A stretch of DNA of 64,000 bases, from NCBI GenBank assembly GCA_963650165.1, contig CAVJKX010000008.1, positions 1,302 to 65,301 of the forward strand, in the 5' to 3' direction. A model generated the notes under the pieces. It searched no databases and had not been told where the DNA came from. It was given only the letters and a program-made list of their open reading frames with translations. This DNA comes from a bacterium (GTDB taxonomy: Bacteria > Bacillota > Clostridia > Oscillospirales > Oscillospiraceae). The first letter of the stretch is position 1; the number at the start of each line of letters is the position of its first letter. Positions 4,409 to 30,925 of the stretch are shown here, one piece after another. The translations under genes and the position numbers were made by a program.

Positions 4409-4436
4409 CGCCGCAGGCATAATATTGCAGAAAAAA

Positions 4437-4461
4437 CACCCGCATCGTAGTGATGCGGGTG
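4437..4461. terminator. bidirectional terminator hairpin
   Basis: CACCCGCATC-gtagt-GATGCGGGTG with an A6 run before and a T-run after, between convergent rsmI and the carbonic anhydrase gene. Confidence 0.7.
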
Positions 4462-4476
4462 GTCATTTTTATGTGC

Positions 4477-10665: not shown

Positions 10666-10681
10666 TTTAATTTTCCTCCTT

Positions 10682-11902: not shown

Positions 11903-12037
11903 ATCGTTTCTCCCGTCCTTTCAGAATTTTTGTTTTCCGGTCTGTACCGCTCCGGGCGGCTGCCCCGCCCTGCGGTTCGATGGTCAAAGCATAGCATGTT
12001 GTGCTTTTTTTAACAAATCGTTAAAATGAATAAAGCT

Positions 12038-12052
12038 ATAGATTTTTTCTAT
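12038..12052. promoter_or_regulatory. LysR-type T-N11-A box candidate
   Basis: ATAGA-TTTTT-TCTAT inverted repeat in the divergent MFS/LysR intergenic region, ~46 nt upstream of the LysR ATG. Confidence 0.4.
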
Positions 12053-12097
12053 CGTTTATGTAATAATAGATGCTGTCGGAAGAGGAGGAGCAGAACG

Positions 12098-12982: not shown

Positions 12983-13053
12983 GAGGCAGATATAGTAAAC
13001 GCTCATGATTTGATAGTTTTTTTGCATCGTTTTCGGACGATCAGATACGAAAA

Positions 13054-13080
13054 ACCCGCTGCTTTCAAAAAGCAGCGGGT
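13054..13080. terminator. terminator closing the 16.8-kb minus-strand operon (and the LysR gene)
   Basis: ACCCGCTGCTTT-caaaa-AGCAGCGGGT; on the minus strand it is followed by TTTTCG. Confidence 0.7.
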
Positions 13081-13101
13081 CAAATTTTGCCGTTTTTCGG
13101 T

Positions 13102-14406
13102 TTATTGGTGGTACAGATATCTCTGCGGAGCTTCCTTTGCCTTTTCGTACAGGGTCTCGGAGACGATGGCGCCGTACTGATCGCGCAGCTGCGTGCCGTA
13201 GCTTTCGGGCAGGCTGCCGCCGGCGAGGGCGATCTGCGATGCCGGAACGCTGCACTTTATCGTCGCGTCGGAATCGTTATACACTGAGGAGACATAGTCC
13301 CTTTCGGTATTGACCGCGATCGAGCCGAGCGTTATCCTGTCGAAGTTTACCGTCAGCTTTTCGCCGCTCATATTGAGCCTGCACTTCACCTCGGTGATGA
13401 TGCCCGGCACCCAGACGGAAAACTGCGTCTTGTATCCGTCGTCGCCGTAGCTTTCAAAGCAGCTGAGATACTTCTGGTTCAGGTTCCGGTTGAGCGAGGA
13501 GCTGTAGGCCATGTCGAGCCTGTAGGTCTTTTTGCTGCCGTAACCGTTTTTGTCGATGTAGCTCATATCGATATAAAAGGTCTGCACCTCGTCGTTGTCG
13601 GCATAGCTGAGATCGATGGGGTTTTCCACATTGAAATAGAAGGTGTATTTATACATGCTCTCCTCGTCGCTGTGGGCATAGGCCTGATTTATATCGCCGT
13701 CGGAGTCCGCGACGCATTTTTTGAGCACGGCAGTGTCGATCACCGCGTTGTACTGGTCTCTGAACTGGCCGGCATATTCCGTGCCGCTGCCGGCGGCTAT
13801 GCTGCTCATTTCCTTTTCGGTGAGCCCCTCTCCGCCGTGCTCGGCAAAGTAGGGCGAATTGCTCTCGTCGATGACCGAGCTCTCCATCGAGCAGTATATT
13901 CTCGCCGAGGAATCGTTGTAGGCCGAGGAGACATAGTCGGTGTTGCTGTTTATCCGTTTGCCGTTGCAGTAGATGCTCTGCACCTCGAACGACAGGCGCT
14001 CGCCGCCGTCCATGTTGAGCAGTATGTCTATCCTGCTGAGCTTGCCGGGGAGCGTAACATCGTAGCTCGTGTAGCATTCATCGTCGTTCGGCCTTATGAA
14101 ATGCTCCTTGAGAAAGTCGGCGTTTTTATTTGAGCTGCCGTTCCACGACATGTCAAAGCGCTCGCTTTTTTCGCTCTGATAACCGTTCTGACCCTTGTAA
14201 TAATAGTCAAAGTACAGGACGTTCACGGCGTCCCTGTCCATGCTCGTTGAGTCGCAGGGATTGCTGACCTTGATGTTCACCGTGTAGACGTATTCGCTCA
14301 CGCCGTCGGCCGCGCCGTTTGCCGCGAGCGCCGAGGGCGCTGCGGCAAGGGACAGGGCAAGGCACACGGCGCACAGGAGCGCAGTCGTTTTTCTGATCCT
14401 TTTCAC
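13102..14406 (-). CDS. secreted protein with two internal ~200-aa repeats, unknown family (434 aa)
   Basis: GTG start 3 nt after the giant gene's stop. Signal peptide MKRIRKTTALLCAVCLALSLAAAPSALA. Repeat 1 (YVYTVNIKVSNP...LYFDYYYKGQNGYQSEKSERFDMSW...DYVSSAYNDSSARIYCS) parallels repeat 2 (YKYTFYFNVENP...FYIDMSYIDKNGYGSKKTYRLDMAY...DYVSSVYNDSDATIKCS). Each repeat is followed by a (Q)FRDQYNAVI / LRDQYGAIV segment. Confidence 0.8.
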   Translation of the reverse strand: MKRIRKTTALLCAVCLALSLAAAPSALAANGAADGVSEYVYTVNIKVSNPCDSTSMDRDAVNVLYFDYYYKGQNGYQSEKSERFDMSWNGSSNKNADFLKEHFIRPNDDECYTSYDVTLPGKLSRIDILLNMDGGERLSFEVQSIYCNGKRINSNTDYVSSAYNDSSARIYCSMESSVIDESNSPYFAEHGGEGLTEKEMSSIAAGSGTEYAGQFRDQYNAVIDTAVLKKCVADSDGDINQAYAHSDEESMYKYTFYFNVENPIDLSYADNDEVQTFYIDMSYIDKNGYGSKKTYRLDMAYSSSLNRNLNQKYLSCFESYGDDGYKTQFSVWVPGIITEVKCRLNMSGEKLTVNFDRITLGSIAVNTERDYVSSVYNDSDATIKCSVPASQIALAGGSLPESYGTQLRDQYGAIVSETLYEKAKEAPQRYLYHQ

Positions 14407-14409
14407 GGC

Positions 14410-17400
14410 TCACGCCCCCTTCATATAAACGTCGTAGGCCACAAACTCACGGTTGAGCGCGTTCATGTCGACCTGGCGGTCCTCCCGGACGGCATTGTCG
14501 GTGCGGCTCGCGTAGAGATACACCCTGTTGTCCGTTATGTGGTCGCCGCCGTCGATGACCGCGACCGTGCCCTCGTTGAGGTTCACGCGGTTTCCGTTGA
14601 CGTCGAATACATGCTCCCATGTATTGTAGTCGTCGTTTATCATGCCGTAGTCCTTGCAGGCAAGACCCAGCTTTGCGATCGGATAGGCGGTGTCCTTGGT
14701 CATGGTCGTGGTGTAATACAGATATATCTGCTTTCCGCCGCTGCCCGAATTGAGGGACACGGCCTTTGATCCGTCCGCATCCGCGGCCGAGGTGTATTCG
14801 TCTCGCGCGCTTTCGTAAACGACGCCGTTTACGGTGATCGTTTTCTGATGCGGCTGGCCGACGGTCAGAACGATATCCCTGACGGCCTTTCTCGCAACGC
14901 CCTTGGTGACCTCGGATCTGGTCAGGGTGTATCTCGAGTAGCCGATGTAGATGTATTCGCCGCCCGTGCCGCGGTTTATATCCAGATTAACGCAGATATT
15001 GCAGCCGAGGCTCAGCAGGTTTGCCTGCGCCTCCTTTGCGGTCTTGCCGTGGCCGACGTAGATGGCGCCCATCATCGTCGCCGTATCCTCATAGCTCATG
15101 TGGATAAAGCTCGACACCTCGGTGTCGCCGTAGAGCTTGATATTTGTTCCGCTGCTGTCGGCCTTTGTCGACATTGCCGTCGCGCAGTCGGCCTCATAGA
15201 CGTTCGAGCTCACGCTTATATCCGTTATCGGCATGCCGGGGCTCGCGCCGCCCGAGGTCGTGTAGTAGAGATAATACGAGCCCTTCGGATCGGGTATCAT
15301 GTCTCCGGCCTTGGTGTAGGTCACGGTGCCGACCTGGATAGTCGGCGGGGCTGTCGTCTTGTCGGTGACGTATCTTATTATGCCCGTGATGGCATCCGAC
15401 TGCACGTTCGTTCTCGACACGCCTATGTACGAGACCGTTTCCGGCTTCGCATCGGCGTTCGAGTAAAAGCTCTGCGAGCTGTCGAGCGCGATATTGGCCG
15501 GAATGATCTCGTCGGTGCACTGCGACAGGAGGCTCTGGATACAGTAGTCGCTGCCGGAGGCCTTGAGCAGGGTCTTCATCTCGTCGGTGTAGTCGGAAAG
15601 CGAGCTTCCGGCCGCCTTGCTCATGGTGAAGGTCGAAACGCAGATCGAGGAGATGTATTTTTTCTGCACGGGCGTGGCCTTGCGCTGGTAGATATACACC
15701 GGCGTGAGGCTGTCTCCGCTGGAGATGTACTTGGAATTGGTCGTATTATAGCCGAGGTTGTGCGCCTGCGTGCGGTTCGGGGTCTTGAAATCCTGAACGC
15801 TCACGAAGCCGTCGGGCACCGTGCTGTCGGACGATACGACTATGTCGTCAACGGTCAGGGGCGTTCCGCCCTCCATGGGGCCGAGCACATATATGCCCTT
15901 GCCGCGCACGCCGCTGCTCGACCACGAGACGTTCTCATAGTCCTCGGGCGCAAGCTCCGTCGTCATTTCCTTCTGCTCTATGCCCGTCGACGTGCCGCTG
16001 CCGCTGGCGAACTGATAGGAGTGCGTTGCGTAAATGCCGCGCATGTAATACTCCGCCGCGCTTCCGCCGCTGACCAGATACGGCAGCTCGAACATGACGT
16101 CGCACACTGCATACGCGCCGCTCGAGACCGTTCCGAGATATACGGGAACGTACAGGTTCCCTGGTGCCGAGGTGTACGATGCTATGCCGTATATGGCCCT
16201 GTAGGGATTATGCGTCGTGGTATAGCATATATAGGTCTCCACGTTCTGCGCCCAGCGCTCCTCGGATACCATGCCGTGCACGTCCGAGGGGAGCTTTATT
16301 TTTGCCCCGCAGGTCAGGCTCAGATCGAATTTTTTAAGCTTCAGAGCCTTTATATAATCGTCTGCCGAATTGTTGAGCTTTCCGCTTCCGTTTCCGGCCA
16401 CGAGAACGATGCCGGAGATGTATTCCTCGCCGTCGGTGTATGCAACGGAGGGTCTGAAGTACAGATACACGCCCTGATCGTTCCAGTGCTCGTGGGTCTG
16501 CGAGCTGTGATCCCTTTCAACGGTATTGTCCACCTCGCTGCCGACGTTGAGATTGAAGGCGTTGCCGCCGCAGAAGAGGTTTATGGGCTCGTAGCCCTCG
16601 GGGATATCGTCGAGCGAATACTTCACCAGCAGGTCGGCAAGTATGGGCGAGCCGGCCGACTTATACGAGGTATAGTAGAGCGTATCGCCCGCAGGGGTCG
16701 TTCCGCAGGAGGTGTATGAGGCGCTGCCGTAGAGGAAGGCCGACGAGCTGTTTCTCGCCGATATTCTTATATCCGTCACGGCGTCGGCTGCGTTCGTCGT
16801 CGTCGTATAGCCCAGATAGGTGTATTTCTTCAGCGAGGCGGTGACGGGCGTAAGGTTCACGTCCAGAACATTATAGCCGCCCTTGGTGAGCGCCGCCTTG
16901 GCCGCAGTCTCCGTGCTCTCGACGGAAAGCTTGAGCTTTGAGATATACTGTCCGTCGTTTTTGACCTCCGCGCCGTCGGTATCGGTCTCCTCGCCCTCGT
17001 TTATGACCTTGTCCGTCGTGCGGCAGAACATATAGACCGCGCAGGAATTCGAGCGCGTGTTCGCGTTGAGGTTTGCCGCGGCGACCTCGCCGAAGCACTT
17101 GACGGCCTTATAGCCGAGGGGCGTTGAGTTGTCGTTGTACTGCACCGTTATAAGATCGTCTATCTGCGAGGATTGGATCGGATCGCCCGCGTAGCTGCTC
17201 GTGCTCGTATAAAGGGCGTTCCACCTCTTCGCGTTGCCGCCGTTTATATTGGCCGGGCTTCCGTTCAGATCGACGGCGGTATATTTGACGTATCTGTTGT
17301 TTGCAACGTCGAATATGACCGTCGGTATCGGCGTGAAGTCCTCCGCGTCATCCTCGGTGAAGGTGTCCCATATGTACTTTACAAGCAGCGCGATGAGTAT

Positions 17401-18996
17401 GACGATCATGGCCGCGGCCGCGATATAGCTGAGCACTATGATCGCGCAGCCGAGAACGCCGAGTATCGTGCCCAGCGCGCCCAAGCCCGTGCCGGCGCAG
17501 CAGATCGCCCACATGCTCACCGAACCCGTGAAGGCCGCTGTAAAGACGAACGCGCCTATGGCCGAGGTCACCACGTCAACCAGAACGACCGCGAGACCCA
17601 GAACCAGCGAGGCTATGCCGACCATTGACTTTGCCGTCGAGAGGAAGTTGTCCACATCGTCGGGCGTGGTCAGGGTATTGTATATCTGTCCGGCGGTGTT
17701 CGTCCTGTAGGCGTCCTGCGTGACGGCGACCTTCTGCTCAAAGGCCGTCTGATCGGTGCCTATCCAGACGGACATGCTGTCCTTGCCGCTCTGCGAGGAT
17801 ATCTCCTGCCGTATCGCCTCGGCCTGCTTTTCGGCCTCGGCTATAAGATCCTCGTTGTTCGTCAGATAGACGACGGAGAAGGCTACGCCGCACAGGCGCA
17901 TCATTGCAAGCTGACCGTCGGTGAGGCTGTCCACAAGGGGGTATATCTTCCTCAGATTTGCCGTCTCGTCATAGGATGAGTTGCCGAGCGCAACGATGTA
18001 GTCGGCAAGGCTTGTCGTCTCGTCGTAGGAATACTGACTGAGTATGTTGTAGGCCGCCAGGAAGAGCGCGTCGCCGTCGTTGGTCTCGATCTCGCCGCCG
18101 GTGGCCACATCCTCCGCGAGCTGCTCGTTCATTTCGGTATCGCTCTCGTCGGTGACGCTCGTCTGTGCGATCTTGCCGCCGTTTGCCGCATAGCGCGCGG
18201 CCGCTTCGTTGTAGCTCTGCGAGAAGGACTGGAGGCCGGAGGCGAGCTCCTTTGCAAGGACCTTGTACTGCGCGTCGAGCTTATTGTTGTTATCGCCGCT
18301 TGCAAGCTCCGCCTGCACGGTCGAGGAGGATATCCTCGACGCCCAGTTATCGTCGCCGTAATCGGCGACGCCGGGTACGAGCGCATTGCAGAAGGCAGAC
18401 ACGACCGGAGTGCTCGCGCGGGAGAGTATCTTCTTGACGAAGTCGATGCCGCAGCTGCCGCTGACCATGTAGTCGCCGAGCTTCGTACCGCCGAGCTCAT
18501 CGATGTAGTAGCTGTTGAGTATCTTGACCGCCGCTATGGCCGCGGGGCTTCCGGCACTGTAATTGTCGGCAAACTCGCTGACGGCATAGCTTATCTCCAT
18601 GGGGATGTTCCCGAGCTTTTCCATCGCCTTTTCGGCGACCTCGCTGTAGGAGCAGTCCTGATAGCCGCTGTTCATCTGCAGGAGCGATATATCTGTTATC
18701 GCCTCGTCTGGGTCGGTCGTCGTCTTATAGCCGACGATGTATATCCCGTCGTCGGCGCTGTCGCTGTCATTGCTGCGGTTTATGTTCTTTTTGACGGCGG
18801 TATAGCCTGCCGACTCGCAGCTTTTTATCGCTTCGGCAAGGCTGCCGCCGCTGAACACCTGCACCTCGGAGATGTATTTGGAATCGTTCTCCGCCGTGAC
18901 CGCGACCGCGTTCCCCACGTCCGTGAACAGGAGCGCGAACACCAGCAGCAGGCAGAGCGAGGCTGTGATGAAATGAAGCTTTCTGTTTTCTGTCAT
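14410..18996 (-). CDS. giant (1528 aa) exported membrane protein with a central TM cluster and many copies of the operon's repeat motif
   Basis: ATG at 18996 overlaps the upstream stop (ATGA) and follows a GGAGGCGGGGAG purine run. Signal/anchor LHFITASLCLLLVFALLFT. The N-terminal ~600 aa align by eye with the 744-aa paralogs (YISEVQV...GYKTTTDPDEAITDISLL; RKIYPLVDSLTDGQ vs RYMLYPLVSVLSEGQ; DFTPIP after the TMs). The C-terminal ~880 aa carry repeated YLGYTTT../..YLYYTT..PITDI blades. The track ORF start at 19254 is an extension. Confidence 0.85.
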   Translation of the reverse strand: MTENRKLHFITASLCLLLVFALLFTDVGNAVAVTAENDSKYISEVQVFSGGSLAEAIKSCESAGYTAVKKNINRSNDSDSADDGIYIVGYKTTTDPDEAITDISLLQMNSGYQDCSYSEVAEKAMEKLGNIPMEISYAVSEFADNYSAGSPAAIAAVKILNSYYIDELGGTKLGDYMVSGSCGIDFVKKILSRASTPVVSAFCNALVPGVADYGDDNWASRISSSTVQAELASGDNNNKLDAQYKVLAKELASGLQSFSQSYNEAAARYAANGGKIAQTSVTDESDTEMNEQLAEDVATGGEIETNDGDALFLAAYNILSQYSYDETTSLADYIVALGNSSYDETANLRKIYPLVDSLTDGQLAMMRLCGVAFSVVYLTNNEDLIAEAEKQAEAIRQEISSQSGKDSMSVWIGTDQTAFEQKVAVTQDAYRTNTAGQIYNTLTTPDDVDNFLSTAKSMVGIASLVLGLAVVLVDVVTSAIGAFVFTAAFTGSVSMWAICCAGTGLGALGTILGVLGCAIIVLSYIAAAAMIVILIALLVKYIWDTFTEDDAEDFTPIPTVIFDVANNRYVKYTAVDLNGSPANINGGNAKRWNALYTSTSSYAGDPIQSSQIDDLITVQYNDNSTPLGYKAVKCFGEVAAANLNANTRSNSCAVYMFCRTTDKVINEGEETDTDGAEVKNDGQYISKLKLSVESTETAAKAALTKGGYNVLDVNLTPVTASLKKYTYLGYTTTTNAADAVTDIRISARNSSSAFLYGSASYTSCGTTPAGDTLYYTSYKSAGSPILADLLVKYSLDDIPEGYEPINLFCGGNAFNLNVGSEVDNTVERDHSSQTHEHWNDQGVYLYFRPSVAYTDGEEYISGIVLVAGNGSGKLNNSADDYIKALKLKKFDLSLTCGAKIKLPSDVHGMVSEERWAQNVETYICYTTTHNPYRAIYGIASYTSAPGNLYVPVYLGTVSSGAYAVCDVMFELPYLVSGGSAAEYYMRGIYATHSYQFASGSGTSTGIEQKEMTTELAPEDYENVSWSSSGVRGKGIYVLGPMEGGTPLTVDDIVVSSDSTVPDGFVSVQDFKTPNRTQAHNLGYNTTNSKYISSGDSLTPVYIYQRKATPVQKKYISSICVSTFTMSKAAGSSLSDYTDEMKTLLKASGSDYCIQSLLSQCTDEIIPANIALDSSQSFYSNADAKPETVSYIGVSRTNVQSDAITGIIRYVTDKTTAPPTIQVGTVTYTKAGDMIPDPKGSYYLYYTTSGGASPGMPITDISVSSNVYEADCATAMSTKADSSGTNIKLYGDTEVSSFIHMSYEDTATMMGAIYVGHGKTAKEAQANLLSLGCNICVNLDINRGTGGEYIYIGYSRYTLTRSEVTKGVARKAVRDIVLTVGQPHQKTITVNGVVYESARDEYTSAADADGSKAVSLNSGSGGKQIYLYYTTTMTKDTAYPIAKLGLACKDYGMINDDYNTWEHVFDVNGNRVNLNEGTVAVIDGGDHITDNRVYLYASRTDNAVREDRQVDMNALNREFVAYDVYMKGA

Positions 18997-20462
18997 GCTC
19001 TCCCCGCCTCCTTTTTCTTCTTTCCGCGCCTTACGGCAAACACCGTGAACAGGGTGATCGCCGCCGCACAGGCGCAGATGTAAGCGATATCTCCGCGGCC
19101 GATGGCGGAGGCCACCGCGCGGATGTTGTCCTGACTGAGCGCCGACGATTCGACCTTGTCCTGAGCGTAGCCGTCGTCGAAGCCGATGTAATTCGTATAC
19201 TGGAACTTGTCTATGCCCTTTACGGCAAGGCGTGAGCTCGTGCTCGTCGAGCAAAGCAGGACCGACGAGCCCTCGTAAAAGCCGCCGCAGTACAGATAGG
19301 CCGTAGACGCCGTGCCGTCCTGGAGGCAGAGGTCGTTTGCCTTGCCGTTCACGCTGTTGTCCGTCACGATGAGCTTTCCGGAGGCGTTTATGTCGTTCAT
19401 GCTGTCGACATATATGCCGCCGCCGTTTTTCGACGCGCTGTTGTAGCGGTACTCGCCGCCGATGACGAAGACCCTGTCGGCGTTTATGTACAGCGCGCCG
19501 CCGTTTTTCGCGGCGCTGTTGTAGTACATCCTGCAGCTTTTGAGATATGTGCCCTTGCCGGAGTCGCAGTACACGGCGCCGCCGTGGTCCTCCGTCGTTT
19601 TATTGAACGAGAACACGCACTCGGATATCTCGGCCGTGGCAGAGCCGGCAAGGCACACCGCCCCACCCAGCTCATCGCAGCTGTTCGAGTAAAACTCGGA
19701 CGAGGAGAGCTTCAGGCTCCCGCCGTAGGTATAGATCGCGCCGCCGTCGTCCTCCGCGTAGTTGCCCTCGAAGGTCGCGCTGCTCACGGTAACGGCTGCC
19801 GCGTTTGAGTATATCGCGCCGCCGCAGCACTCGCCGGAGGCGTCGTAGGTACGGTTGCCGTAGAACGAGCCGCCGTTTACGTTGAGCTTGATGGTCGAGC
19901 CGAAGGCGCTTATCGCGCCGCCGTCGTCGGTGGATACGCAGTTGAGTATCGTACCGCCGTTGAAGTTGAGCTCGGAGTTATCCAGGAGGACTATGCCGCC
20001 GCCGCGCGCCTTGTTCGCGCCGTTGCAGATGGCGCCGCCCCTGAAGAGCTTGGACACGGTGTACTCGCCGCTTCTCGAGTCGATAATGGTCATGAGCGAG
20101 CCGACGTAGATGACCGCTCCGCCGGAGACCGGTGACGAGAGGTTCCTGTCGATGCTGTATCCGTTGAGGTCGAGCGTCAGCATTTTCGCGCTCGAGTAGC
20201 ACAGCGCACCGTCTCTGTATCCGTCGCCGCTGCCGAAGGAGCCGGAGTCCGACGCCTTCCAGTTCTGACGGAGCGTGAAGGTGACCTCGCCGCTCTTTCC
20301 GAACTCGATCGCTCTTTTCCATGCATCCTCGAAGGAGGTGCAGTCGATCGTCGTGCCGTTTGAGCTGACCGTGGCGCAGATGCCGTCGGCACAGACCGGG
20401 ACGCACAGCAGCGCGCACATGACGAGCGCCAGCGCAAAAGATATGGTTTTTCTAAATTTCAT
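18993..20462 (-). CDS. Pmp-repeat (GGAI/FxxN) right-handed beta-helix protein with signal peptide and C-terminal TM anchor
   Basis: MKFRKTISFALALVMCALLCVPVCA signal. At least 8 GGA(I/V/L) repeats (GGAVIY, GGAICN, GGAISAF, GGAIYSN, GGAIYTY, GGAVCL, GGAVYC, GGALYI, GGGIYV), interleaved with F.GN/F.SN/F.FN. C-terminus IAYICACAAAITLFTVFAV-RRGKKKKE. Start 20462 is preferred (AAGGA RBS 9 nt upstream) over 20471. Confidence 0.8.
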   Translation of the reverse strand: MKFRKTISFALALVMCALLCVPVCADGICATVSSNGTTIDCTSFEDAWKRAIEFGKSGEVTFTLRQNWKASDSGSFGSGDGYRDGALCYSSAKMLTLDLNGYSIDRNLSSPVSGGAVIYVGSLMTIIDSRSGEYTVSKLFRGGAICNGANKARGGGIVLLDNSELNFNGGTILNCVSTDDGGAISAFGSTIKLNVNGGSFYGNRTYDASGECCGGAIYSNAAAVTVSSATFEGNYAEDDGGAIYTYGGSLKLSSSEFYSNSCDELGGAVCLAGSATAEISECVFSFNKTTEDHGGAVYCDSGKGTYLKSCRMYYNSAAKNGGALYINADRVFVIGGEYRYNSASKNGGGIYVDSMNDINASGKLIVTDNSVNGKANDLCLQDGTASTAYLYCGGFYEGSSVLLCSTSTSSRLAVKGIDKFQYTNYIGFDDGYAQDKVESSALSQDNIRAVASAIGRGDIAYICACAAAITLFTVFAVRRGKKKKEAGRA

Positions 20463-20499
20463 CAGAATCATTCCTTATGCGGATTCTGTGCCGGGAGTT

Positions 20500-22734: not shown

Positions 22735-22736
22735 TT

Positions 22737-24971
22737 TTACGCCTCCCGTATTTTTTTCTTCTGTACGCTTTCGCCGGCGAAGAAGGCTGCGGCACCGACG
22801 ACGATCGCCGCCGCAACGCTTACAAGGATATAGCTGCTGTCGGAAAATACGCTGCCTGCAAAGGCGCTCTCGTCCACGTTGTAGAACAGGTAAATTCCGC
22901 TCTTGCCGTCGGCATAGGTGTAGCCGAGCTGCTTGTTGGTGAGGTTCTGTGCGACGTTTTCGCCGAACATGGAAAGCGCGGTGCTGCTTTCCTTGGGGAT
23001 GCTGCTGCTTTCGTACTGGACCTGCAGGCCGCCCGTTACGATGGGATCGCCCGCCGCCTTGTCCTTGGTGGTATACAGCGCCACCCACTGGCGGCCGACG
23101 TCGCCGTTTATATCGCCGTAGTCGCCGAGAAGCTTGGTCGCATCGGTCACCATTCCGGCATCGACGCGGTTGCACTTGACGGCATCGTAATATGTGTATA
23201 CCTTTTCGTCGTTATCGTTTGTCGCCTCGTTTACCATGTGCATCGGTATCGGCGTAAACTCCGCGTTGTAGTATTCATTCATATCCTGCCAGGTGTGCCA
23301 GAGCGAATATGCCAGCAGCGCGACGGTGACGCAGGTCATTATGACGCTGGCGGCCGTCATGAGCCTCGAGAGCGTGACCTTGCTCGATGCCTGACGCATC
23401 AGATCATTGCCCTTGGCCATGTTCGTGTCGATCTTGCTCTGGAGCGCCGTCTTTTCGGCGTCGGTCACGGCCTTGGCCATTTTCTCGCCTGCCATCTTGG
23501 CAACATCGTAGTTGCCTTCGCCCTCCCAGTACAGCTCCTGTGCCACATCGAGCAGGGTGGAGTTACACTTATATATCCACATTGCCGTCGTGCACACCAT
23601 GGAGAAGCCGAAAACGCCGTACAGGATGAACGAGGTCGTGGAAACGTGATCCCACTCGGAATCGACGGCGTTCTTGCCGGAGGCCGCCTGGAGACGCAGC
23701 GCCTCGTTTGTCATGGCAACGTCGCCGCCGAAGATCGTGCGGTCTACTCCGTCGTAAACGGAGACCTTGTCGCTGTCGCCGGTGAGGAGCTCATAGGACT
23801 CGGCTGCCTTCTTTGCGGCCTCGTCGCTGTTGATGCCTATCGCAACGAGCTGGTACATGGACAGGAAGTCGATGCAGGCTCTCTGACCCTCGGTCAGGAC
23901 GGAGACCAGCGGATAGAGCATGTAGCGGTCGGCGTTCTGGACGTCGTAGTCATCGCCCGTTATGAGATCATAGAGGGATACGCCGTCGTTAGTGAGCTTT
24001 GAGAGCAGCTCGTACTGCGTGCCGGCCGCGAACCAGCTTGTGTAGTCAAAGTCCTCGTGCGCGGTCTGATATGCCTCGACATCCTCTGCGGACGTCGAGA
24101 AGCTTATCTCGGCCTCGGTGTAGCCTTCAAGGAAGGTCTTGTAGTCGGTAAATTTCGAGGCTATGGCCTTTGCCGTCGTGTCGTACTGCGCGGCAAGCTG
24201 CTTTTCGGCCTCGTTGACGGTGATGTTTTTCTCCGCCATCACGGCGTCGAGCATATCGTCGTAGCTTCCGGCGCTCTTATAGCGCTCGGTCCAGGTGCTG
24301 TCGTTCGTATCGGCCGCCATTGCGATGACGTTCTCGATGGTCAGCACCGCGTCGGCGTTTGCCTGCATGAGGATGGTGGTCATGTCGGCGGTCTTTGCCT
24401 GCTCGTCGGCGGACAGGGCCGCAAACTCCTCGTCGGTATACTCCTCTTTTATCTTGCCGAGCAGCAGATCGCCGAGCAGCATGTCCGTATCGTCGTCATA
24501 CAGGAGGTTGAGCAGATCGTGAGCCGCCTTTGCGCGCTCCTGACCGGCTGCGTAGTTTGCCCTGTACTCGTTTACCGCAACGATGAAGTTATTTATGAAG
24601 AGCTTTATGTTTTCCTTCTGCTCGTCGAGCAGCATCTGGTAGTCCTGAACGCTGTAGCCGCCCTTCATGTTCATAAGGCGCATATCGGTTATGGCTTCCT
24701 CGGGGTCATTGGTCGTCGTGTAGCCGAGGTACACGGCGCGCTCCGTCGAGCGCCAGTCGTCCGCGTCCTCGTTGAGGTCGTAGTCGAGTATCTCGTAGCC
24801 GTTTTCGGTGAGCCATGCCTTGGCCTCGTCTGCCGTTTTGCCGTAGCTTATGACGACGTCCTTTATGTACGTCTGCTTTGACGACGCCGCAAAGGCGTTC
24901 GCGCAGGTGCTGAAGGTGAGCACCACCGCCAGCACGAGACTCAGGATCGCTTTAAAGGATTTGTTGAACAT
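22737..24971 (-). CDS. paralog 2 of the tandem 744-aa exported three-TM protein family
   Basis: Same architecture. N-terminal ~125 aa and C-terminal ~200 aa are nearly identical to the neighbours by eye; the segment between TM1 and TM2 is unrelated. GGGAGG RBS. Confidence 0.85.
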   Translation of the reverse strand: MFNKSFKAILSLVLAVVLTFSTCANAFAASSKQTYIKDVVISYGKTADEAKAWLTENGYEILDYDLNEDADDWRSTERAVYLGYTTTNDPEEAITDMRLMNMKGGYSVQDYQMLLDEQKENIKLFINNFIVAVNEYRANYAAGQERAKAAHDLLNLLYDDDTDMLLGDLLLGKIKEEYTDEEFAALSADEQAKTADMTTILMQANADAVLTIENVIAMAADTNDSTWTERYKSAGSYDDMLDAVMAEKNITVNEAEKQLAAQYDTTAKAIASKFTDYKTFLEGYTEAEISFSTSAEDVEAYQTAHEDFDYTSWFAAGTQYELLSKLTNDGVSLYDLITGDDYDVQNADRYMLYPLVSVLTEGQRACIDFLSMYQLVAIGINSDEAAKKAAESYELLTGDSDKVSVYDGVDRTIFGGDVAMTNEALRLQAASGKNAVDSEWDHVSTTSFILYGVFGFSMVCTTAMWIYKCNSTLLDVAQELYWEGEGNYDVAKMAGEKMAKAVTDAEKTALQSKIDTNMAKGNDLMRQASSKVTLSRLMTAASVIMTCVTVALLAYSLWHTWQDMNEYYNAEFTPIPMHMVNEATNDNDEKVYTYYDAVKCNRVDAGMVTDATKLLGDYGDINGDVGRQWVALYTTKDKAAGDPIVTGGLQVQYESSSIPKESSTALSMFGENVAQNLTNKQLGYTYADGKSGIYLFYNVDESAFAGSVFSDSSYILVSVAAAIVVGAAAFFAGESVQKKKIREA

Positions 24972-24973
24972 CG

Positions 24974-27211
24974 TTATGCCTCCCTGACCTTTTTCTTCTG
25001 CACGCTCTCGCCTGCGAAGAAGGCCGCAACGCCGACGACGATCGCCGCCGCAACGCTTATAAGAATGTAGCTGTTATCGGAGAATACGCTGCCTGCAAAG
25101 GCGCTTTCGTCCACGTTGTAGAACAGGTAGATGCCGCTCTTGCCGTCTGCATAGGTGTAGCCGAGCTGCTTGTTGGTGAGGTTCTGTGCGGAGTCCTCGC
25201 CAAACATGGAAAGCGCGGTGCTGCTCTCCTTGGGGATGCTGCTGCTTTCGTACTGGACATTGAGGCCGTTTGTTACGATGGGATCGCCCGCCGCCTTGTC
25301 CTTGGTGGTGTACAGCGCTACCCACTGGCGGCCGACGTCGCCGTTTATATCGCCGAAGTCGCCGAGTATCTTCGATGCGTCGGTCACCATTCCGGCATCG
25401 ACGCGGTTGCACTTTACTGCGTCGTAATAGGTATATACCTTTTCGTCGCTGTCGTTTGTCGCCTCGTTTACCATGTGCGAGGGGATGGGCGTAAACTCCG
25501 CGTTATAGTATTCATTCATATCCTGCCAGGTGTGCCAGAGGGAGTAGACCATCAGCGCGACGGTGACGCAGGTCATTACGATGCTTGCATAGCGGAGGAC
25601 GCTCGCCCAGGTCTCCGCACGCGAGCCGGCCCGTATCGCGGCATCCGCCTGATCTCTGGCCTCGTTGTATTCGGCAGCCTTTGCGCGCAGATCCAAGCCC
25701 TCTGTCTGCTTGTTGACATCATTGAGTATCTCCGCGGCCTGAGCCTTGACTGAAGTAAGTCTCACAACCTCATTCTCGTATTTATTGGCAAGACTGGCCA
25801 TACGGGCGTACTTGATCCACGATGCCGTCGTTGCCGCGAGCGAAACGGCAAAGGATGCATACAGCGCTATCGAGCCGCCGGAGATCTGATCCCACTCGGT
25901 CTCGACGGCGTTCTTGCCGCTGGCTGCCTGGAGGCGCAGCGCCTCGTTGGTCATGGCGACATCGCCGTCGAAGATGGTGCGGTCAATGCCGTCGTAAACG
26001 GAGGTCTTGAGCTTTTCCATCAGCGCATCGTCCATGCTGTCTATCGCGTCCTTGGCGGAGGCGTCGTTGTTTATGCCCAGCGCCACGATCTGATACATGG
26101 GCAGGAACTCGAGGCAGGCTCTCTGACCCTCGGTCAGGCAGGACAGGAGAGGATAGAGCATGTAGCGGTCGGCTCCCTTGACGTCGTAGTCCTCGCCCGT
26201 TATGAGATCATAGAGGGATATGCCGTCGTTAGTGAGCTGCGTCACGACCGCATACTGGGTGCCGGCGGCGAACCAGTTTATGTAGTCGAAGTCCTCGTGC
26301 GCTGCCTTGTACGCCTCTATCTCCTCCTGCGTGTTTTCAAAGGAGATGTCCGAGTTCGTGTATTTTTCAAGGTAGGTCTTGTAGTTTTCTATCTGTGCCG
26401 CGACGGTCTTTGCGTCCTCGTCGTACTCGGCTGCAAGCTGCTTTTCCGCCTCGTTGACGGTGAGGTTTTTCTCCGCCATCAGCGCGTCGAGCATATCGTC
26501 GTAGCTTCCGGCGCTCTCGTATCTGTCGGTCCAGAGCTTATCGCCGGTGTCGGTCGCCGTTGCTATGGTCTGCTCGATGGTGAGCACGGCGTCTGCGTTT
26601 GCCTGCATGAGAATTGTAGTCATGTCGGCGGTCTTTGCCTGCTCGTCGGCGGACAGGGCGTTCCACTCCTCGTCGGTATACTCTTCCTTTATCTTGTTCA
26701 GAAGCGCATCGCCCATGTACTGCTGGCTGTCGTCGTCGTACAGGAGGTTGAGCACCTCGTAGGCTGCCTTCGCACGCTCCTGACCGGCCGCGTAGTTGGT
26801 CCGGTACTCGTTTATTGCGACGATGAAGTTATTCAGGAAGGTCTTTATATTCTCCTTCTGCTCGTCGAGCAGCATCTGGTAGTCCTGAACACTGTAGCCG
26901 CCCTTCATATTCATAAGGCGCATATCGGTTATGGCTTCCTCGGGGTCGCTCGTCGTCGTATAGCCGAGGTACACGGCACGGGCCGTCGAGCGCCAGTCGT
27001 CCGCGTCCTCGTTGAGGTCGTAGTCGAGTATCTCGTAGCCGTTCTCGGTGAGCCAGGCCTTGGCCTCGGCCGCCGTCTTGCCGTAGCTTATGACAACGTC
27101 CTTTATGTACGTCTGCTTTGACGACGCCGCAAAGACGTTTGCACAGGTGCCGAAGGTGAGCACCACGGCAAGCATAAGGCTTATGACTGTTTTAAATGGT
27201 TTTTTCAGCAT
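24974..27211 (-). CDS. paralog 1 (745 aa) of the tandem exported three-TM protein family
   Basis: Same architecture. AAGGAGG RBS overlapping the stop of the upstream gene. Confidence 0.85.
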   Translation of the reverse strand: MLKKPFKTVISLMLAVVLTFGTCANVFAASSKQTYIKDVVISYGKTAAEAKAWLTENGYEILDYDLNEDADDWRSTARAVYLGYTTTSDPEEAITDMRLMNMKGGYSVQDYQMLLDEQKENIKTFLNNFIVAINEYRTNYAAGQERAKAAYEVLNLLYDDDSQQYMGDALLNKIKEEYTDEEWNALSADEQAKTADMTTILMQANADAVLTIEQTIATATDTGDKLWTDRYESAGSYDDMLDALMAEKNLTVNEAEKQLAAEYDEDAKTVAAQIENYKTYLEKYTNSDISFENTQEEIEAYKAAHEDFDYINWFAAGTQYAVVTQLTNDGISLYDLITGEDYDVKGADRYMLYPLLSCLTEGQRACLEFLPMYQIVALGINNDASAKDAIDSMDDALMEKLKTSVYDGIDRTIFDGDVAMTNEALRLQAASGKNAVETEWDQISGGSIALYASFAVSLAATTASWIKYARMASLANKYENEVVRLTSVKAQAAEILNDVNKQTEGLDLRAKAAEYNEARDQADAAIRAGSRAETWASVLRYASIVMTCVTVALMVYSLWHTWQDMNEYYNAEFTPIPSHMVNEATNDSDEKVYTYYDAVKCNRVDAGMVTDASKILGDFGDINGDVGRQWVALYTTKDKAAGDPIVTNGLNVQYESSSIPKESSTALSMFGEDSAQNLTNKQLGYTYADGKSGIYLFYNVDESAFAGSVFSDNSYILISVAAAIVVGVAAFFAGESVQKKKVREA

Positions 27212-27223
27212 AGCTATGCCTCC

Positions 27224-28543
27224 TTAATTTCCTTTCTTTTTCCCACTGGTGTTTTTTCTGCCTTTTATATAAATCCACGTTCCGATGATCGCCAGGATGA
27301 TAATTATCGAAACGCAGGAAACAGCTATTATGTTTCCGCTGTTTATGACCGACGCGATAAGGCCGGTCTCGCCGTCCTCGTCCCCGGTCCCGTCGTCCGT
27401 GGTCTCCGCCTCGTCCTCCGACTTGTCGATATCGTAAAACTCGTCTACGGCGTCGGCAGCGGGCTCTTCGCTGACCTCGGGCTCCTCCGTTGCCTCGGGT
27501 TCCTCCGTCGCCTCGGGCTCGGCATCGGTGAAAACGCCCTCGTAAAGAGCATAGATATCGCTGTCTCCGGCGGATACGCAGCTGCACGCCTGGGTGCTCG
27601 CGCTCAGCGACTTATACTGGCTCGAGTGTCTTGAAAGGGTTCTGTCATAGGAGGCGTAAACGCCCGCCCAGTCGCCGAGCTCGAAGCTGTCGCCGAAAAA
27701 TCTTCCGGCGGTGACGTCTATGAGCCGCGTGCCCGACTGCCCGTCCCGCTCAAGCTGCACCTCGCCGGAGCTGAGGCCGAAGCCCGTCAGCGCAGCGTCC
27801 GCGTCGGCTGTTCTGCGGTAGGCAAGGTACGCGACCTCGCCGCTGCCGCCGATATCCTTATCTACATAATGATCGCAGCCGAGCGAGGCGGCGCGGTTCA
27901 CGGCCTCGGCCTTCGTGCCGCCGCTGACAAGGCACACGTCGGCGATATAGCGCTGTATGTCCGGGCTCCGGTACATCAGCAGATATATCTCGCTGTTATA
28001 CACGCCCTTGTCGAGGTTGGCAAGCGTTCCGTCGCTCATGCGCACGGGGGTCGAGCCGTCGTTTCGCAGCGACAGCACCTCGTCGGTATCGGAAAAGCCG
28101 GACGCCGTGTCCAGCGACGTGATCCTGCCGCCCGCCGCACCGTCGCGCGTATAGTAAAGGTACAGCGCCGTGCCGCCGTTTCCGTAGTTGAGGCTGTTTT
28201 CCGAGGCAAGGCTGTAGCTGCATCCGTCATAGCTGAGCGTCTGGCTACACTGCGTTGAAACGACGAGACCGGTTATCGCGTTCGAGCCCTTTTTATAGCC
28301 CAGATACACGGCGCTTCCGTCACTTGAGACAAGATTCAGTCCCTGAAACAGGACCGAGTAGCCCCGGCTTTCGAGGTTCGATCTCCCCTCCGTTCCGACC
28401 GCAATGCTGATCTCGGATATATAGCTCGTCTTTGCGTAGGCGCAGACGCTCAGGCTGCCCGCCGCCGTCAGCACGAGCAGCAGCACGCTCAGCGACCTGA
28501 GCGCATTAGCGAATAGTTTTTTCTTTTTGATCAAGGTCTTCAC
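27224..28543 (-). CDS. exported protein (439 aa) with repeat-motif domains, acidic EPEATEEPEATEEPEVSEEP linker and C-terminal TM anchor
   Basis: GTG start. Signal MKTLIKKKKLFANALRSLSVLLLVLTAAGSLSVCAYA. TSYISEISIAVG...GYSVL...AVYLGYKKGSNAITGLVV; ALYLYYTRDGAAGGRITSLD; RYIADVCLVSGGTKAEAVNRAASLGC...VAYLAYRRTADADAALTGFGL. C-terminus IIAVSCVSIIIILAIIGTWIYI-KGRKNTSGKKKGN. Confidence 0.8.
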   Translation of the reverse strand: MKTLIKKKKLFANALRSLSVLLLVLTAAGSLSVCAYAKTSYISEISIAVGTEGRSNLESRGYSVLFQGLNLVSSDGSAVYLGYKKGSNAITGLVVSTQCSQTLSYDGCSYSLASENSLNYGNGGTALYLYYTRDGAAGGRITSLDTASGFSDTDEVLSLRNDGSTPVRMSDGTLANLDKGVYNSEIYLLMYRSPDIQRYIADVCLVSGGTKAEAVNRAASLGCDHYVDKDIGGSGEVAYLAYRRTADADAALTGFGLSSGEVQLERDGQSGTRLIDVTAGRFFGDSFELGDWAGVYASYDRTLSRHSSQYKSLSASTQACSCVSAGDSDIYALYEGVFTDAEPEATEEPEATEEPEVSEEPAADAVDEFYDIDKSEDEAETTDDGTGDEDGETGLIASVINSGNIIAVSCVSIIIILAIIGTWIYIKGRKNTSGKKKGN

Positions 28544-28553
28544 CGCCCTGTCT

Positions 28554-29207
28554 TCAGCCGTTTGCTTTGGCTTTCTTAACGAATTTTTTCAGTACGAACA
28601 CATTTATGACCATATATATCGACACCGGCAGGAAATAGCCGATGTAATTGGCCACGGCCGACTCCGCCTCGACGAGCAGATTGAACACCGAGTGGAACAC
28701 GACGGCCAGATTGAAGCTGCACAGCACGCCGCAGAGGAAAAGCTTTTTCTTCTTATGTATATAAGGTACGAAGTTTGCAACGAGCATCGTCGTGATGCTG
28801 TGCATCAGGCCCGTGCTGAAGCCGCGTATCATGGCAAAGAGGAAATTTGCCGACGCCAGATGCTGCATGAGGATGATTATATTCTCCAGCATTGCAAAGC
28901 CCACGCCTGTGGCAAATGCTACGGTGGTGATGGACTTTTCGTCGTCGGAAAAAACGTAGGCGTAGTATATCACCGGCAGCACCTTGACAAACTCCTCGGT
29001 GATCGGCGTGACGTTCGTCGTCAGGTACAGCATCGTGCTCTTCGTCATGCGCAGCAGCAGGCCGTTGACCTCGCTGACAAACAGACACAGGAACATTCCC
29101 ATCAGGAGCGCCACGACTATCTTCCGCGACTGCTTCTCTATCGGTATCAGCATCATGCCCAGCGGGACGGCGATGCAGATAAACAGAATGTAGCTCATTG
29201 AATCCAT
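28554..29207 (-). CDS. PrsW-family intramembrane protease-like protein (217 aa, polytopic)
   Basis: Motifs in hydrophobic context: PITEEFVKVLP (EExxK), GFAMLEN (FxxxE), HSITT and HSVFN (HxxxN). These match what I recall of PrsW/CPBP-superfamily catalytic motifs. Confidence 0.6.
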   Translation of the reverse strand: MDSMSYILFICIAVPLGMMLIPIEKQSRKIVVALLMGMFLCLFVSEVNGLLLRMTKSTMLYLTTNVTPITEEFVKVLPVIYYAYVFSDDEKSITTVAFATGVGFAMLENIIILMQHLASANFLFAMIRGFSTGLMHSITTMLVANFVPYIHKKKKLFLCGVLCSFNLAVVFHSVFNLLVEAESAVANYIGYFLPVSIYMVINVFVLKKFVKKAKANG

Positions 29208-29857
29208 TTTTTCGTCTCCTTATTAAGAAGCGGAAGAAATACGACGTACAGGACGCCCAGCAGCGCCTGAATGACAACGGGACTGCTGAACGAGACGCAG
29301 TAAAGCCCGACCTCGGCGAGCGTGAGCAGCTCCAGCGCCAGGCACATGGCATTGAAGCTCCGCAGCGCCCTTATTATGCCGCCCTCGACGTCCGGTATGA
29401 TCAGATGCTTGAGGTTGAAGTATCCGGCAAGGCCCGCGAGCAGCAGCAGGACCGCGAAGGAAATGCGCACATCGAGCGCGGCCCCGTCATAGCAGAGCGC
29501 AAGCACCGCAAGCGCAAGCTCCGCCGCCGGAAGTATCAGCGCGAGCAGCCTGTATTTTGCGTATCCCCTATCCTCCTCGTCGAGCAGGTGGTCGATCGCG
29601 CCGACGTTCGGCAGATACAGGAACAGGAAGAACGCGGCAAAGCCCAGAAAGCCGATATTGAAGCCGTCCGGCAGCTCGCCGTAGCACAGGAGCGTCACGA
29701 TATAAAAGGCGCGCAGAAAGACCTGGCAGGCGATCGGGAAGATCATCAGCCGGAAATACAGCGGCTGCTTCCTCCTGTATGTGGCCGTCAGGCCGTAGAT
29801 CAGACCCGCACAGGCACAGATAAACAGATATATGTTTGTCACGGCGGCAAGTTTCAT
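29195..29857 (-). CDS. polytopic membrane protein, unknown family (220 aa)
   Basis: About 6-7 hydrophobic helices. ATG at 29857 is preferred (GAGGAGAG RBS) over 29878. Overlaps the PrsW-like gene by 13 nt. Confidence 0.7.
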   Translation of the reverse strand: MKLAAVTNIYLFICACAGLIYGLTATYRRKQPLYFRLMIFPIACQVFLRAFYIVTLLCYGELPDGFNIGFLGFAAFFLFLYLPNVGAIDHLLDEEDRGYAKYRLLALILPAAELALAVLALCYDGAALDVRISFAVLLLLAGLAGYFNLKHLIIPDVEGGIIRALRSFNAMCLALELLTLAEVGLYCVSFSSPVVIQALLGVLYVVFLPLLNKETKKWIQ

Positions 29858-29917
29858 CCGGCGCTCTCCTCTCACCATAAACGCAGCTCAATGCGCATGA
29901 TATAACTTTGACATAGT

Positions 29918-29946
29918 ATTGTACCATCGTGATTATTCAACGTCAA
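29918..29946 (-). promoter_or_regulatory. strong sigma-A-type promoter of the nine-gene operon
   Basis: Minus strand: TTGACG (29946-29941), 17-nt spacer, TACAAT (29923-29918), ~60 nt upstream of the first ATG. Confidence 0.55.
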
Positions 29947-30767: not shown

Positions 30768-30925
30768 GTTGATTTTCCTCCTTAAGTTTTGTGTATGCTA
30801 TTGTATACTGTTTTTGCCCGTGCGGCAAGGGAAAAGCCGCGTTTGACAGCATAAATCGTCCGACGCTGCCCGGGACGTTCGGGAATTTGACCTTTCCTCC
30901 GTCTGCACATAGCTTTGCAATTTGC

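Follow-up and report, generated by a model that had tools for sequence, protein, structure and literature searches.

Oscillospiraceae are abundant and mostly uncultured bacteria of the gut, and their cell surfaces are almost unknown. A 64,000-nt stretch of an Oscillospiraceae genome assembly (GenBank GCA_963650165.1, contig CAVJKX010000008.1, positions 1,302 to 65,301), here called the window, contains nine minus-strand open reading frames (ORFs; G1–G9) that span positions 29857 down to 13102 and are treated as one operon. In the direction of reading they encode a polytopic membrane protein (G1), a member of the PrsW family of intramembrane proteases (G2) and seven predicted exported proteins, referred to as the cargo: the anchored protein G3, three paralogues that we call the 744 family after their length (G4–G6), the PMP-repeat protein G7, the giant protein G8 and the secreted protein G9. 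In this study, we describe a C-terminal tail common to G3–G7 and a beta-prism domain that is probably common to G3, G4–G6 and G8, we follow the nine genes through other genomes, and we put forward, at somewhat less than even probability, the reading that G1 and G2 act on the shared tails of a surface assemblage. An earlier sequence-only reading had singled out the operon as a candidate undescribed system of the cell surface, and its claims are taken up where the results bear on them.

The ORF coordinates confirm the nine co-directional genes described in that reading, and recomputation of the junctions from G1 to G9 reproduced all eight of its lengths (-13, 10, 12, 2, 2, 37, -4 and 3 nt; taking the first ATG, at 20462, as the start of G7 shortens the sixth to 28 nt). 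The 13-nt overlap is that of G1 with the PrsW gene. The start of G1 at 29857 is preceded by a GAGAGGAGAG ribosome-binding site, and its orthologue in another locus (L001) begins at the same Met. A single strong promoter had been claimed upstream of G1; the site is there and is the best-scoring of only 10 promoter-like sites in 17.5 kb, and we regard it as a consensus match only, since 10 sites are no excess over the 7.8 +/- 2.7 found in shuffled sequences. Hairpins resembling terminators were located on both flanks, where they had been reported. Signal peptides and topology were taken from sequence and hydropathy and are therefore predictions: the hydropathy scan agrees with the earlier count of seven signal peptides among the nine proteins, placing signal-peptide-like N-termini on G3–G9, and adds C-terminal transmembrane (TM) helices with Lys tails in G3–G7 and internal TM hairpins in G4–G6 and G8. 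Searches of all nine proteins with Pfam, NCBIfam and PADLOC returned only PrsW and PMP repeats, both of which had been recognized before, and found no LPXTG, SLH, LysM, sortase, secretion or other ATPase, or regulator, in agreement with the absences listed in the sequence-only reading; exosortase and rhombosortase were likewise absent from the nine proteins in Pfam and NCBIfam. The features are collected in Table 1.

Table 1. Features of the nine-gene operon, in window coordinates (res, residues; TM, transmembrane).
Feature	Position	Strand	Description
Upstream hairpin	30052-30020		Terminator-like; hairpin scan
Promoter-like site	29918..29946	-	TTGACG-17-TACAAT with TG extension, sigma-70-type, 5' of G1; consensus match only, 10/12
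G1	29195..29857	-	220 res, polytopic, about 7 TM helices, undescribed family; hydropathy
G2	28554..29207	-	217 res, PrsW-family intramembrane protease; Pfam PF13367
G3	27224..28543	-	439 res, cargo: signal peptide, beta-prism, second domain, acidic stalk, tail
G3 beta-prism	27956..28435	-	res 37-196, three repeat units; family alignment and model
G3 stalk	27371-27538	-	res 336-391, acidic Pro/Glu/Thr-rich repeat EPEATEEPEATEEPEVSEEP (EPEATEEP) between ectodomain and tail
G3 tail	27227..27370	-	IASVINSGN, TM helix, then KGRKNTSGKKKGN
G4	24974..27211	-	745 res: signal peptide, first prism unit, helical domain of about 300 res, TM hairpin with hypervariable loop, remainder of prism, tail
G4 tail	24977-25108	-	
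G5	22737..24971	-	744 res, 73% identical to G4
G5 prism, part 1	24642-24881	-	
G5 helical domain	23652-24629	-	
G5 variable TM1 and loop	23352-23639	-	res 445-540
G5 prism, part 2	22857-23264	-	
G5 tail	22740-22871	-	
G6	20500..22734	-	744 res, 71-72% identical to G4 and G5
G6 tail	20503-20640	-	
G7	18993..20471 (or 20462)	-	492 res: signal peptide, PMP-repeat (beta-helix type) ectodomain, tail
G7 tail	18996-19127	-	AVASAIGRGD, TM helix, RRGKKKK
G8	14410..18996	-	1528-res giant without C-terminal tail
G8 split prism of 744-type head	18403-18885 and 17011-17370	-	
G8 TM block	17377-17634	-	Hydropathy
G8 further prism	16519-16956	-	res 681-826
G8 further prisms	14491-15669	-	res 1110-1502
G9	13102..14406	-	434 res, secreted, two internal repeats, no TM helix, no tail
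Downstream hairpin	13053..13081	-	Intrinsic-terminator-like, 13-bp stem and T run, after G9

The order G1–PrsW–G3–[744 family, 1 to at least 8 copies]–PMP–giant–G9 recurs in about 40 species-level metagenome-assembled genomes (MAGs) of Oscillospirales. The genomes were searched with back-translated peptide patterns, and the numbers of loci obtained, 33 and 41, are lower bounds. The search with G5 retrieved at least 33 loci, in which tblastn of all nine proteins showed the same order (L001–L034); on the metagenome contig L034, for which genes had been called, the same nine genes are flanked by dTDP-sugar genes and recA. Clusters whose G9 is only 35–41% identical still retain [744-like, several]–PMP–giant–G9, with a G1-like gene in two of four of them and PrsW beside it in one. 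Starting from PrsW only, at least 41 loci were found, cargo genes adjoining PrsW in 37 of the 41 and G1 lying directly upstream of PrsW in every member of the set in which upstream DNA is present. The cargo cluster runs on the same strand as G1–G2 or is convergent with it (G1–G2, then inverted G9–G8–G7–744), and the identity of PrsW drops to 43%, in MAGs titled Acutalibacteraceae, Ruminococcaceae UBA1767 and Candidatus Colimorpha. The flanks differ even between the window and L001, whose operon is 91–96% identical (tblastn). No relatives of the operon were found in IMG/VR, no integrase, transposase or phage genes were in view (Pfam, NCBIfam and PADLOC, and the called genes of L034), and the GC content of the operon resembles that of its surroundings. 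Because of this synteny, the differing flanks and the lack of IMG/VR relatives, the nine genes are one chromosomal, inherited unit that is restricted to the Oscillospirales lineage and shows no obvious mobile element. Co-occurrence in other genomes, which the sequence-only reading had named as the check on its proposal, is thus seen both for the operon, which travels as a unit in many Oscillospirales genomes, and for the PrsW gene, which is tied to the cluster. Many of the MAGs come from a single study (CAV... accessions; L001–L033, L035–L037 and L123–L161) and are titled Collinsella aerofaciens, Escherichia coli, Bacteroides faecis, Hallerella and so on; as they carry an Oscillospiraceae operon and an RNase J that is 90–94% identical to that of the window (checked in L035 and L036), these organism labels are considered unreliable. 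The closest relatives of the window's RNase J-like gene, at 94–60% identity, are found in uncultured Oscillospiraceae/Clostridiales MAGs such as CAG:555, UBA7273 and Candidatus Limivicinus, in keeping with the Oscillospiraceae assignment.

The C-termini of G3, G4–G6 and G7 are built alike. A small residue is followed by [AG], an invariant Ser, [VAI], [IFV], two variable residues, G/S and [NSD], then by about 22 hydrophobic residues and a cluster of Lys/Arg, so that the consensus can be written as [AG]-S-[VA]-[IF]-x-x-G-[NSD], TM helix, Lys cluster. The tails of the three families align without gaps on the invariant Ser, and beyond the tail G7 shows no relationship to either G3 or the 744 family (BLASTP). 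The tail is retained in the most divergent clusters, for example as GSAIGSGS, ASVIGNGN and ASVFSDGI; elsewhere, in G8, G9, all other ORFs of the window and more than 1 Mb of related loci, none was found. A tail profile of 47 positions was searched against 1.84 billion representative proteins and matched only 31 representatives at E <= 1e-3, nearly all of them ending at the extreme C-terminus. Members of the G3, 744 and G7 families account for 12 of the 31, and about 16 are otherwise unrelated signal-peptide proteins with Flg_new or beta-helix-like ectodomains, which carry ASVF/GSVF-x-x-G-[NS], a TM helix and KKK. The NCBIfam CTERM and sorting-signal models gave chance TM matches only when compared with the five isolated tails at E <= 10. 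The sequence-only reading had noted anchoring by a C-terminal TM helix and a Lys-rich end; these elements are present, but the description understated them, since what the alignments point to is a conserved, modular tripartite signal on unrelated ectodomains.

The tail was also judged against Haft's published attribute list for tripartite C-terminal sorting signals. It lies at the extreme C-terminus and consists of a motif, a TM helix and a basic cluster in that order; its carriers have signal peptides, are several (five in the operon) and include unrelated proteins. A homologue that lacks the signal exists in residues 12–643 of G8, which are 744-like and have no tail, and a linked enzyme is at hand in that G1–G2 adjoin tail-bearing genes in 37 of the 41 loci retrieved with G2. 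The list also calls for three nearly invariant residues, to which the tail corresponds loosely: Ser is invariant and is preceded by [AG] at -1, the residue at +5 is Gly in G3, G7 and the outside proteins and S/G/N in the 744 family, and the hydrophobic pair at +1/+2 is conserved by class only.

Despite being described as members of unassigned families in the sequence-only reading, a designation that holds for part of the set, G3, G4–G6 and G8 probably contain a described domain. All-versus-all BLASTP revealed a unit of about 65 residues common to these five proteins. The beta-prism of G3 consists of three repeat units, each with an invariant x-L/A-N (GLN34, SLN83 and LAN140 in domain numbering) and a YLxY strand, and the strand pattern of an AlphaFold2 model of the G3 ectodomain (52 homologues; predicted local distance difference test score, pLDDT, 87.4; predicted template-modelling score 0.84) agrees with the threefold repeat. 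Foldseek matched the model to 8b6u (2.4e-4) and 8b6v_A (1.1e-3), both Mpf2Ba1, and to 2qp2 (Plu-MACPF; 6.5e-3), with probability 1.00 over 163–178 aligned columns in each case; all other matches had E >= 0.7, and 3TOW (MVB12B) was not among them. The three structures have in common a C-terminal beta-prism, which was named MABP by de Souza & Aravind (2010; PMC2881412), and the prism of Mpf2Ba1 bears a metal site formed by three DLN motifs (PMC10344926). At the sequence level, the profile of the G3 prism found a sole match among PDB sequences, to residues 304–352 of Mpf2Ba1, within its prism, at a marginal E of 0.073, and no match in Pfam. By fold, then, G3, G4–G6 and G8 probably share an MABP-type beta-prism and are to that extent not all orphans.

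The second domain of G3 (residues 197–335) weakly resembles the first (E 0.008). It is followed by an acidic stalk whose length varies from about 20 to more than 90 residues among orthologues; a Pfam match of G3 to Trypan_PARP is spurious and is produced by the stalk repeat. This EPEATEEP stalk before the tail resembles the wall-spanning linkers which precede other sorting signals.

In the 744 family the prism appears to be split. With hhalign, positions 1–101 of the G3 prism profile correspond to residues 31–164 of G5 (3.3e-7) and positions 65–157 to residues 596–699 (1.6e-4), and since the matches are divided in this way the prism of the 744 family and of the head of G8 is taken to be interrupted by about 470 residues. 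The insertion would comprise the helical domain and two hydrophobic helices that form a TM hairpin. An AlphaFold2 model of G5 has a mean pLDDT of 60.7 and is confident only in the helical domain (residues 115–410; pLDDT 80–94), which gave no significant Foldseek match in the PDB (best E 0.39). A pore former of the ClyA/Hbl/Nhe alpha type was considered for G4–G6 and set aside: AhlB and HblL1 were matched at E 5.8–6.6 with TM-scores of at most 0.11, and because the usable helical domain has no significant match the idea is unsupported. The three paralogues are 83–97% identical in their prism parts and 3–17% identical in residues 450–540, which make up the first hydrophobic helix and a loop of about 70 residues that is predicted to be cytoplasmic. 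This pattern could mean that the ends evolve in concert, the middle being left to drift or to diversify. The copy number of the family differs between species, the range being 1 to at least 8, and six loci have, just before the PMP gene, a paralogue that is strongly divergent (27–29% identical) (loci with differing copy number or the divergent paralogue: L008, L018, L030, L012, L013, L019, L024 and L025). Positions 22–23 of the signal peptides in this family are almost always Thr-Cys (T22-C23 of G5, window positions 24903–24908, and likewise in G4 and G6), which may be an atypical lipobox that makes these proteins lipoproteins as well.

G8 begins with a fourth 744-family paralogue, in residues 12–643 (1e-36 to 1e-42 versus G4–G6 in all-versus-all BLASTP), a relationship absent from the sequence-only reading, as were the one domain common to five proteins and the one C-terminal motif common to five. 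After this head, at least three more prisms are indicated by hhalign of the G3 prism profile against G8, which gave matches to residues 1305–1502 (2.4e-9), 681–826 (4.4e-8), 38–198 (2.4e-5) and 1110–1305 (4e-5), with a fifth listed at 1e-3. No match among PDB sequences was obtained by phmmer of G5, G8 or G9.

The repeats of G7 match PF02415 (Chlam_PMP; 1.4e-11) and TIGR01376 (1.3e-11). G7 is like the chlamydial Pmp autotransporters in its repeats only; no autotransporter beta-barrel was found in it by Pfam or hydropathy, and its C-terminus is one TM helix with KKKK. The PMP-repeat member varies threefold in length between loci (1467 residues in L159, 720 in L155 and 706 in L118, at 2727–4847), and the proteins of L155 and L159 keep the C-terminal tail. 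G9, the last gene of the cluster in all loci compared, belongs to a family of 71 homologues, all unnamed and restricted to this cluster. It is unrelated to the prism (hhalign), and it has no match in Pfam or among PDB sequences even by profile (43 members in the Pfam scan), for which reason a pair of PLAT-like domains suspected from its sequence pattern was dropped.

G2 matches the PrsW family (PF13367) at 1.9e-14 and 54.1 bits (cut-off 23.5) over profile positions 6–185 of 196. The motifs of this family take the forms EExxK/R, xxxE/H and HxxxN/D. Across 8–17 orthologues, down to 48% identity, G2 has the invariant motifs E71-E72-x-x-K75, E108-N109, H136 and H172-x3-N176, and it keeps intact the active-site set of a PrsW protease, for which 'four conserved motifs' are cited in the literature. 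It is also the most conserved gene of the operon, being 96–99% identical where the cargo is 70–80% identical. G1 is invariant at R49, D89, D93, K150-H151, R166 and N169; a kinship with G2 as a PrsW paralogue was ruled out (hhalign of G1 versus G2, E 0.68). The characterized PrsW is a stress-triggered site-1 protease that cleaves an anti-sigma factor, and that of Bacillus subtilis cuts RsiW outside the membrane at Ala168/Ser169. PrsW and CPBP are distantly related families. We found nothing relevant in the literature that links PrsW to sorting signals. In one locus (L116, 11448–11750) a small gene for a STAS domain of the anti-sigma-antagonist type lies between G9 and G1–PrsW, and in another (L119, 5104–5400) a STAS-domain gene directly follows that of an unrelated tail-bearing Flg_new protein, P0276.

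The gene order and its conservation, the domain content, the modular tail and the intact protease motifs are the observations from which an explanation has to start. We favour, as a reading that comes near to even probability, that the operon builds a membrane-anchored extracytoplasmic assemblage equipped with its own processing machinery, in which G2 together with G1 acts on the shared tails of the cargo. The protease is proposed to recognize the tail because an intact, conserved PrsW and a 7-TM partner are co-inherited with five proteins that have one juxtamembrane motif in common. The seven cargo proteins G3–G9 would be exported by way of Sec, and the tails would anchor G3, G4–G6 and G7 transiently in the membrane. 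G2, acting with G1 as an obligate partner, would then engage the tail on the outer side of the membrane, recognizing it and cleaving or transferring it. The [AG]-Ser of the tail is located at the outer end of the TM helix, and a cut before the invariant Ser is plausible because B. subtilis PrsW cuts RsiW at Ala-Ser. Ectodomains released or re-anchored in this way might assemble with the hairpin-anchored G8 and the soluble G9 at the cell surface, where binding to membranes or ligands would fall to the prisms, as it does in MACPF toxins and MVB12, and adhesion to the PMP helix of G7. There is a precedent in that intramembrane proteases of the CPBP type were proposed, and then experimentally supported, as the sorting enzymes of MYXO-CTERM. 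We infer a role for G1, assembly and a biological role in adhesion or as an envelope structure from these considerations. More tentatively, and with doubt outweighing confidence, a PrsW-type 'sortase' and its 7-TM partner, reading a new Ser-containing tail on dedicated split-prism cargo that forms a surface structure, may constitute an undescribed sorting system.

Several points weigh against this proposal. Cleavage of the tail is a prediction, and the known role of PrsW is regulatory, namely site-1 cleavage of an anti-sigma factor, and not sorting. The motif is short and has Ser as its one strictly invariant residue, and Lys, not Arg, predominates in the basic cluster. No PrsW gene was in view beside four of the outside tail-bearing proteins, on contigs of an uninformative 2–7 kb, and some other enzyme could act on the tail instead. 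In one to three genomes (L145 and L149) G1–G2 lie more than 8 kb from the cargo. Profile searches with 10 diverse members of the G1 family gave no match in Pfam or among PDB sequences. The link of the prism to MABP rests on one good model together with a marginal sequence E-value, and the split prism on the two hhalign matches, the model of G5 being poor outside the helical domain.

An unlikely alternative is that the tails are ordinary permanent anchors and that PrsW is a conditional sheddase or sensor, which would cut one protein of the cluster under envelope stress, for example a 744-family protein at its hairpin or next to the membrane, for remodelling or signalling. This would fit the stress-triggered action of the characterized PrsW, and the predicted cytoplasmic loop of the 744 family could carry such a signal; the outside tail-bearing proteins that have no PrsW gene in view on their short contigs also agree with it. 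The STAS genes beside G1–PrsW and beside a tail-bearing gene speak in the same direction, but such neighbours occur in two loci only, and across about 60 loci the operon contains no sigma factor, anti-sigma factor or other regulator. Moreover, the motif is kept across three unrelated ectodomain families and beyond them, which argues that the tail itself is recognized.

We consider it distinctly improbable that the product of the operon is a membrane-active complex that serves antagonism or acts as a toxin. In such a complex the prisms would direct it to a foreign receptor or membrane, the helical domain and hairpin found in the 744 family and G8 would insert into that membrane, and G1–G2 would confer immunity, like the CPBP/Abi proteins of bacteriocin loci, or serve as peptidases for release, as in PrsW-linked polymorphic toxins. 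Structurally, the prism is indeed related only to receptor- or membrane-binding domains of MACPF pore formers; the nine proteins, however, contain neither a MACPF domain (Pfam) nor any other pore-forming or enzymatic toxin domain, and the helical domain has no significant fold match. Arrays of 1 to at least 8 paralogues with a hypervariable segment are typical of conflict systems, but here the hypervariable loop is predicted to face the cytoplasm of the producer, in which the proteins are anchored by their C-terminal TM helices. Release of toxins by PrsW domains and bacteriocin self-immunity through CPBP relatives have both been suggested in the literature; against this, small immunity-like ORFs are missing from the operon, and no relatives of it turned up among viral contigs. 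Finally, the notion that the nine genes merely happen to be adjacent, or belong to a mobile or prophage island, has next to no probability and is contradicted by the synteny, for although the operon stands in varied contexts in the window, in L001 and in L034, its order and content persist in about 40 species-level genomes at identities down to 35–48%, its junctions are tight or overlapping, its members share domains and the tail, and neither mobile or phage genes, IMG/VR relatives nor a deviating GC content set it apart.

Around the operon, the neighbours at 9823–12982 and 30090–32008 are presumed from their N-termini to be an MFS-type transporter, a LysR-type regulator, an AIM24-like protein and a LacI-type regulator, and none of them adjoins the operon in any other locus examined. 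The upstream gene of L001 (1–5100) is one that we take to encode an AddB-like helicase-nuclease. Long ORFs run antisense to the operon genes on the plus strand (14848–16719, 21820–22644, 24057–24881 and 26297–27121), an antisense ORF of 274 residues recurring inside each gene of the 744 family; the GC content at their third codon positions is 0.5–0.56, compared with 0.74–0.78 in the sense genes, and they are accordingly regarded as artefacts of GC-rich coding DNA, not as genes. Farther away, a large bacterial signal recognition particle RNA (198 bits; 58894–59159, plus strand) lies directly upstream of a dnaX-like gene and slightly overlaps its longest ORF (59132–60907, plus strand), an arrangement in keeping with Firmicutes, and the window also contains tRNA-Ala(cgc) (58709–58784, minus strand) and tRNA-Leu(cag) (37370–37457, minus strand).

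If the proposed processing of the tails by G1 and G2 is correct, PrsW-type proteases, which are known for stress signalling, would become members of a small group of enzymes by which surface proteins are sorted according to a C-terminal tag; among the enzyme classes known to read tripartite C-terminal signals they would be the fifth, and in Clostridia they would be the first apart from sortase. The 47-position tail profile would then serve as a searchable tag that predicts surface-exposed proteins in these organisms, and the MABP prism, familiar from ESCRT-I and from MACPF toxins, would emerge as the chief constituent of a bacterial envelope structure, including a split architecture that is new. 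Should the tails remain uncleaved, the operon would still be a well delimited, conserved and lineage-specific envelope gene cluster.

In line with the sequence-only reading, which could name no described system of such composition, no profile or fold match places the core proteins in a characterized system, and no paper or curated model was found for the 744 family, G1, G8, G9, the split prism or the tail. Partial likenesses do exist. In the export of polymorphic toxins described by Zhang et al. (2012; PMC3482391), a PrsW-family peptidase was proposed to process and release co-encoded extracytoplasmic proteins; unlike in those systems, PrsW is free-standing here and the cargo has no recognizable toxin domain or immunity gene. 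The PrsW–RsiW pair of B. subtilis involves the same protease family, of similar size (217 residues in G2) and with conserved acidic and His motifs, and its substrate is a single-pass protein that is cut extracytoplasmically at Ala-Ser, comparable to the [AG]-S at the outer TM end of the tail. In contrast, the operon contains no sigma/anti-sigma pair, five surface proteins encoded alongside the protease and of the opposite topology (N-terminus out, C-terminus in) are its putative substrates, and the protease gene is embedded in a structural operon and co-inherited with it. The prisms resemble the MABP prisms of Plu-MACPF/Mpf1Aa1 (2QP2), Mpf2Ba1 (8B6U) and MVB12 (PMC2881412) in their threefold repeated three-stranded units, in the repeated x-L-N that stands where Mpf2Ba1 has its metal-binding DLN, and in a location that is predicted to be extracytoplasmic and membrane-proximal. 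They differ in that the operon proteins have no MACPF domain and up to five prisms per protein, and in the apparent interruption of the 744-family and G8 prism by about 470 residues with a helical domain and a TM hairpin. Clostridial cell-wall proteins such as CLOL250_02048 join an N-terminal MABP domain with beta-helix repeats (PMC2881412) and, compared by description, likewise bring the two kinds of module together on predicted surface proteins of Clostridia; in the operon, however, prism and PMP beta-helix are on separate polypeptides, to which a protease and a shared tail are added.

In its presumed mode of action, the operon would work most like the myxosortase/rhombosortase class of intramembrane proteases that read a C-terminal tag. 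Myxosortase (the CPBP-family MrtX, MrtC and MrtP) reads MYXO-CTERM and related Cys-containing signals and rhombosortase reads GlyGly-CTERM (bioRxiv 10.1101/2023.06.07.544157; PMC11980579). In those systems as in the operon, a tripartite C-terminal signal is found on signal-peptide proteins with unrelated ectodomains, the known or proposed enzyme is a polytopic intramembrane protease and not a sortase-type transpeptidase, and, as in 'dedicated' systems, enzyme and targets are neighbours. The operon differs in that its enzyme is PrsW (PF13367) and not CPBP (PF02517) or a rhomboid, its tail motif has an invariant Ser, no Cys and a Lys-rich basic cluster, its host is a monoderm of the Clostridia, it encodes a second, obligate membrane protein in G1, and its cleavage is a prediction; unlike in the curated CTERM systems, no curated model matches its tail. 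Because enzyme family, motif and host lineage all differ, the operon is not a member of the myxosortase or rhombosortase systems. The pairing of a C-terminal tag with a membrane protease is thus of an already known kind, and what is new are the cargo families, the tail that they share and the split prism.

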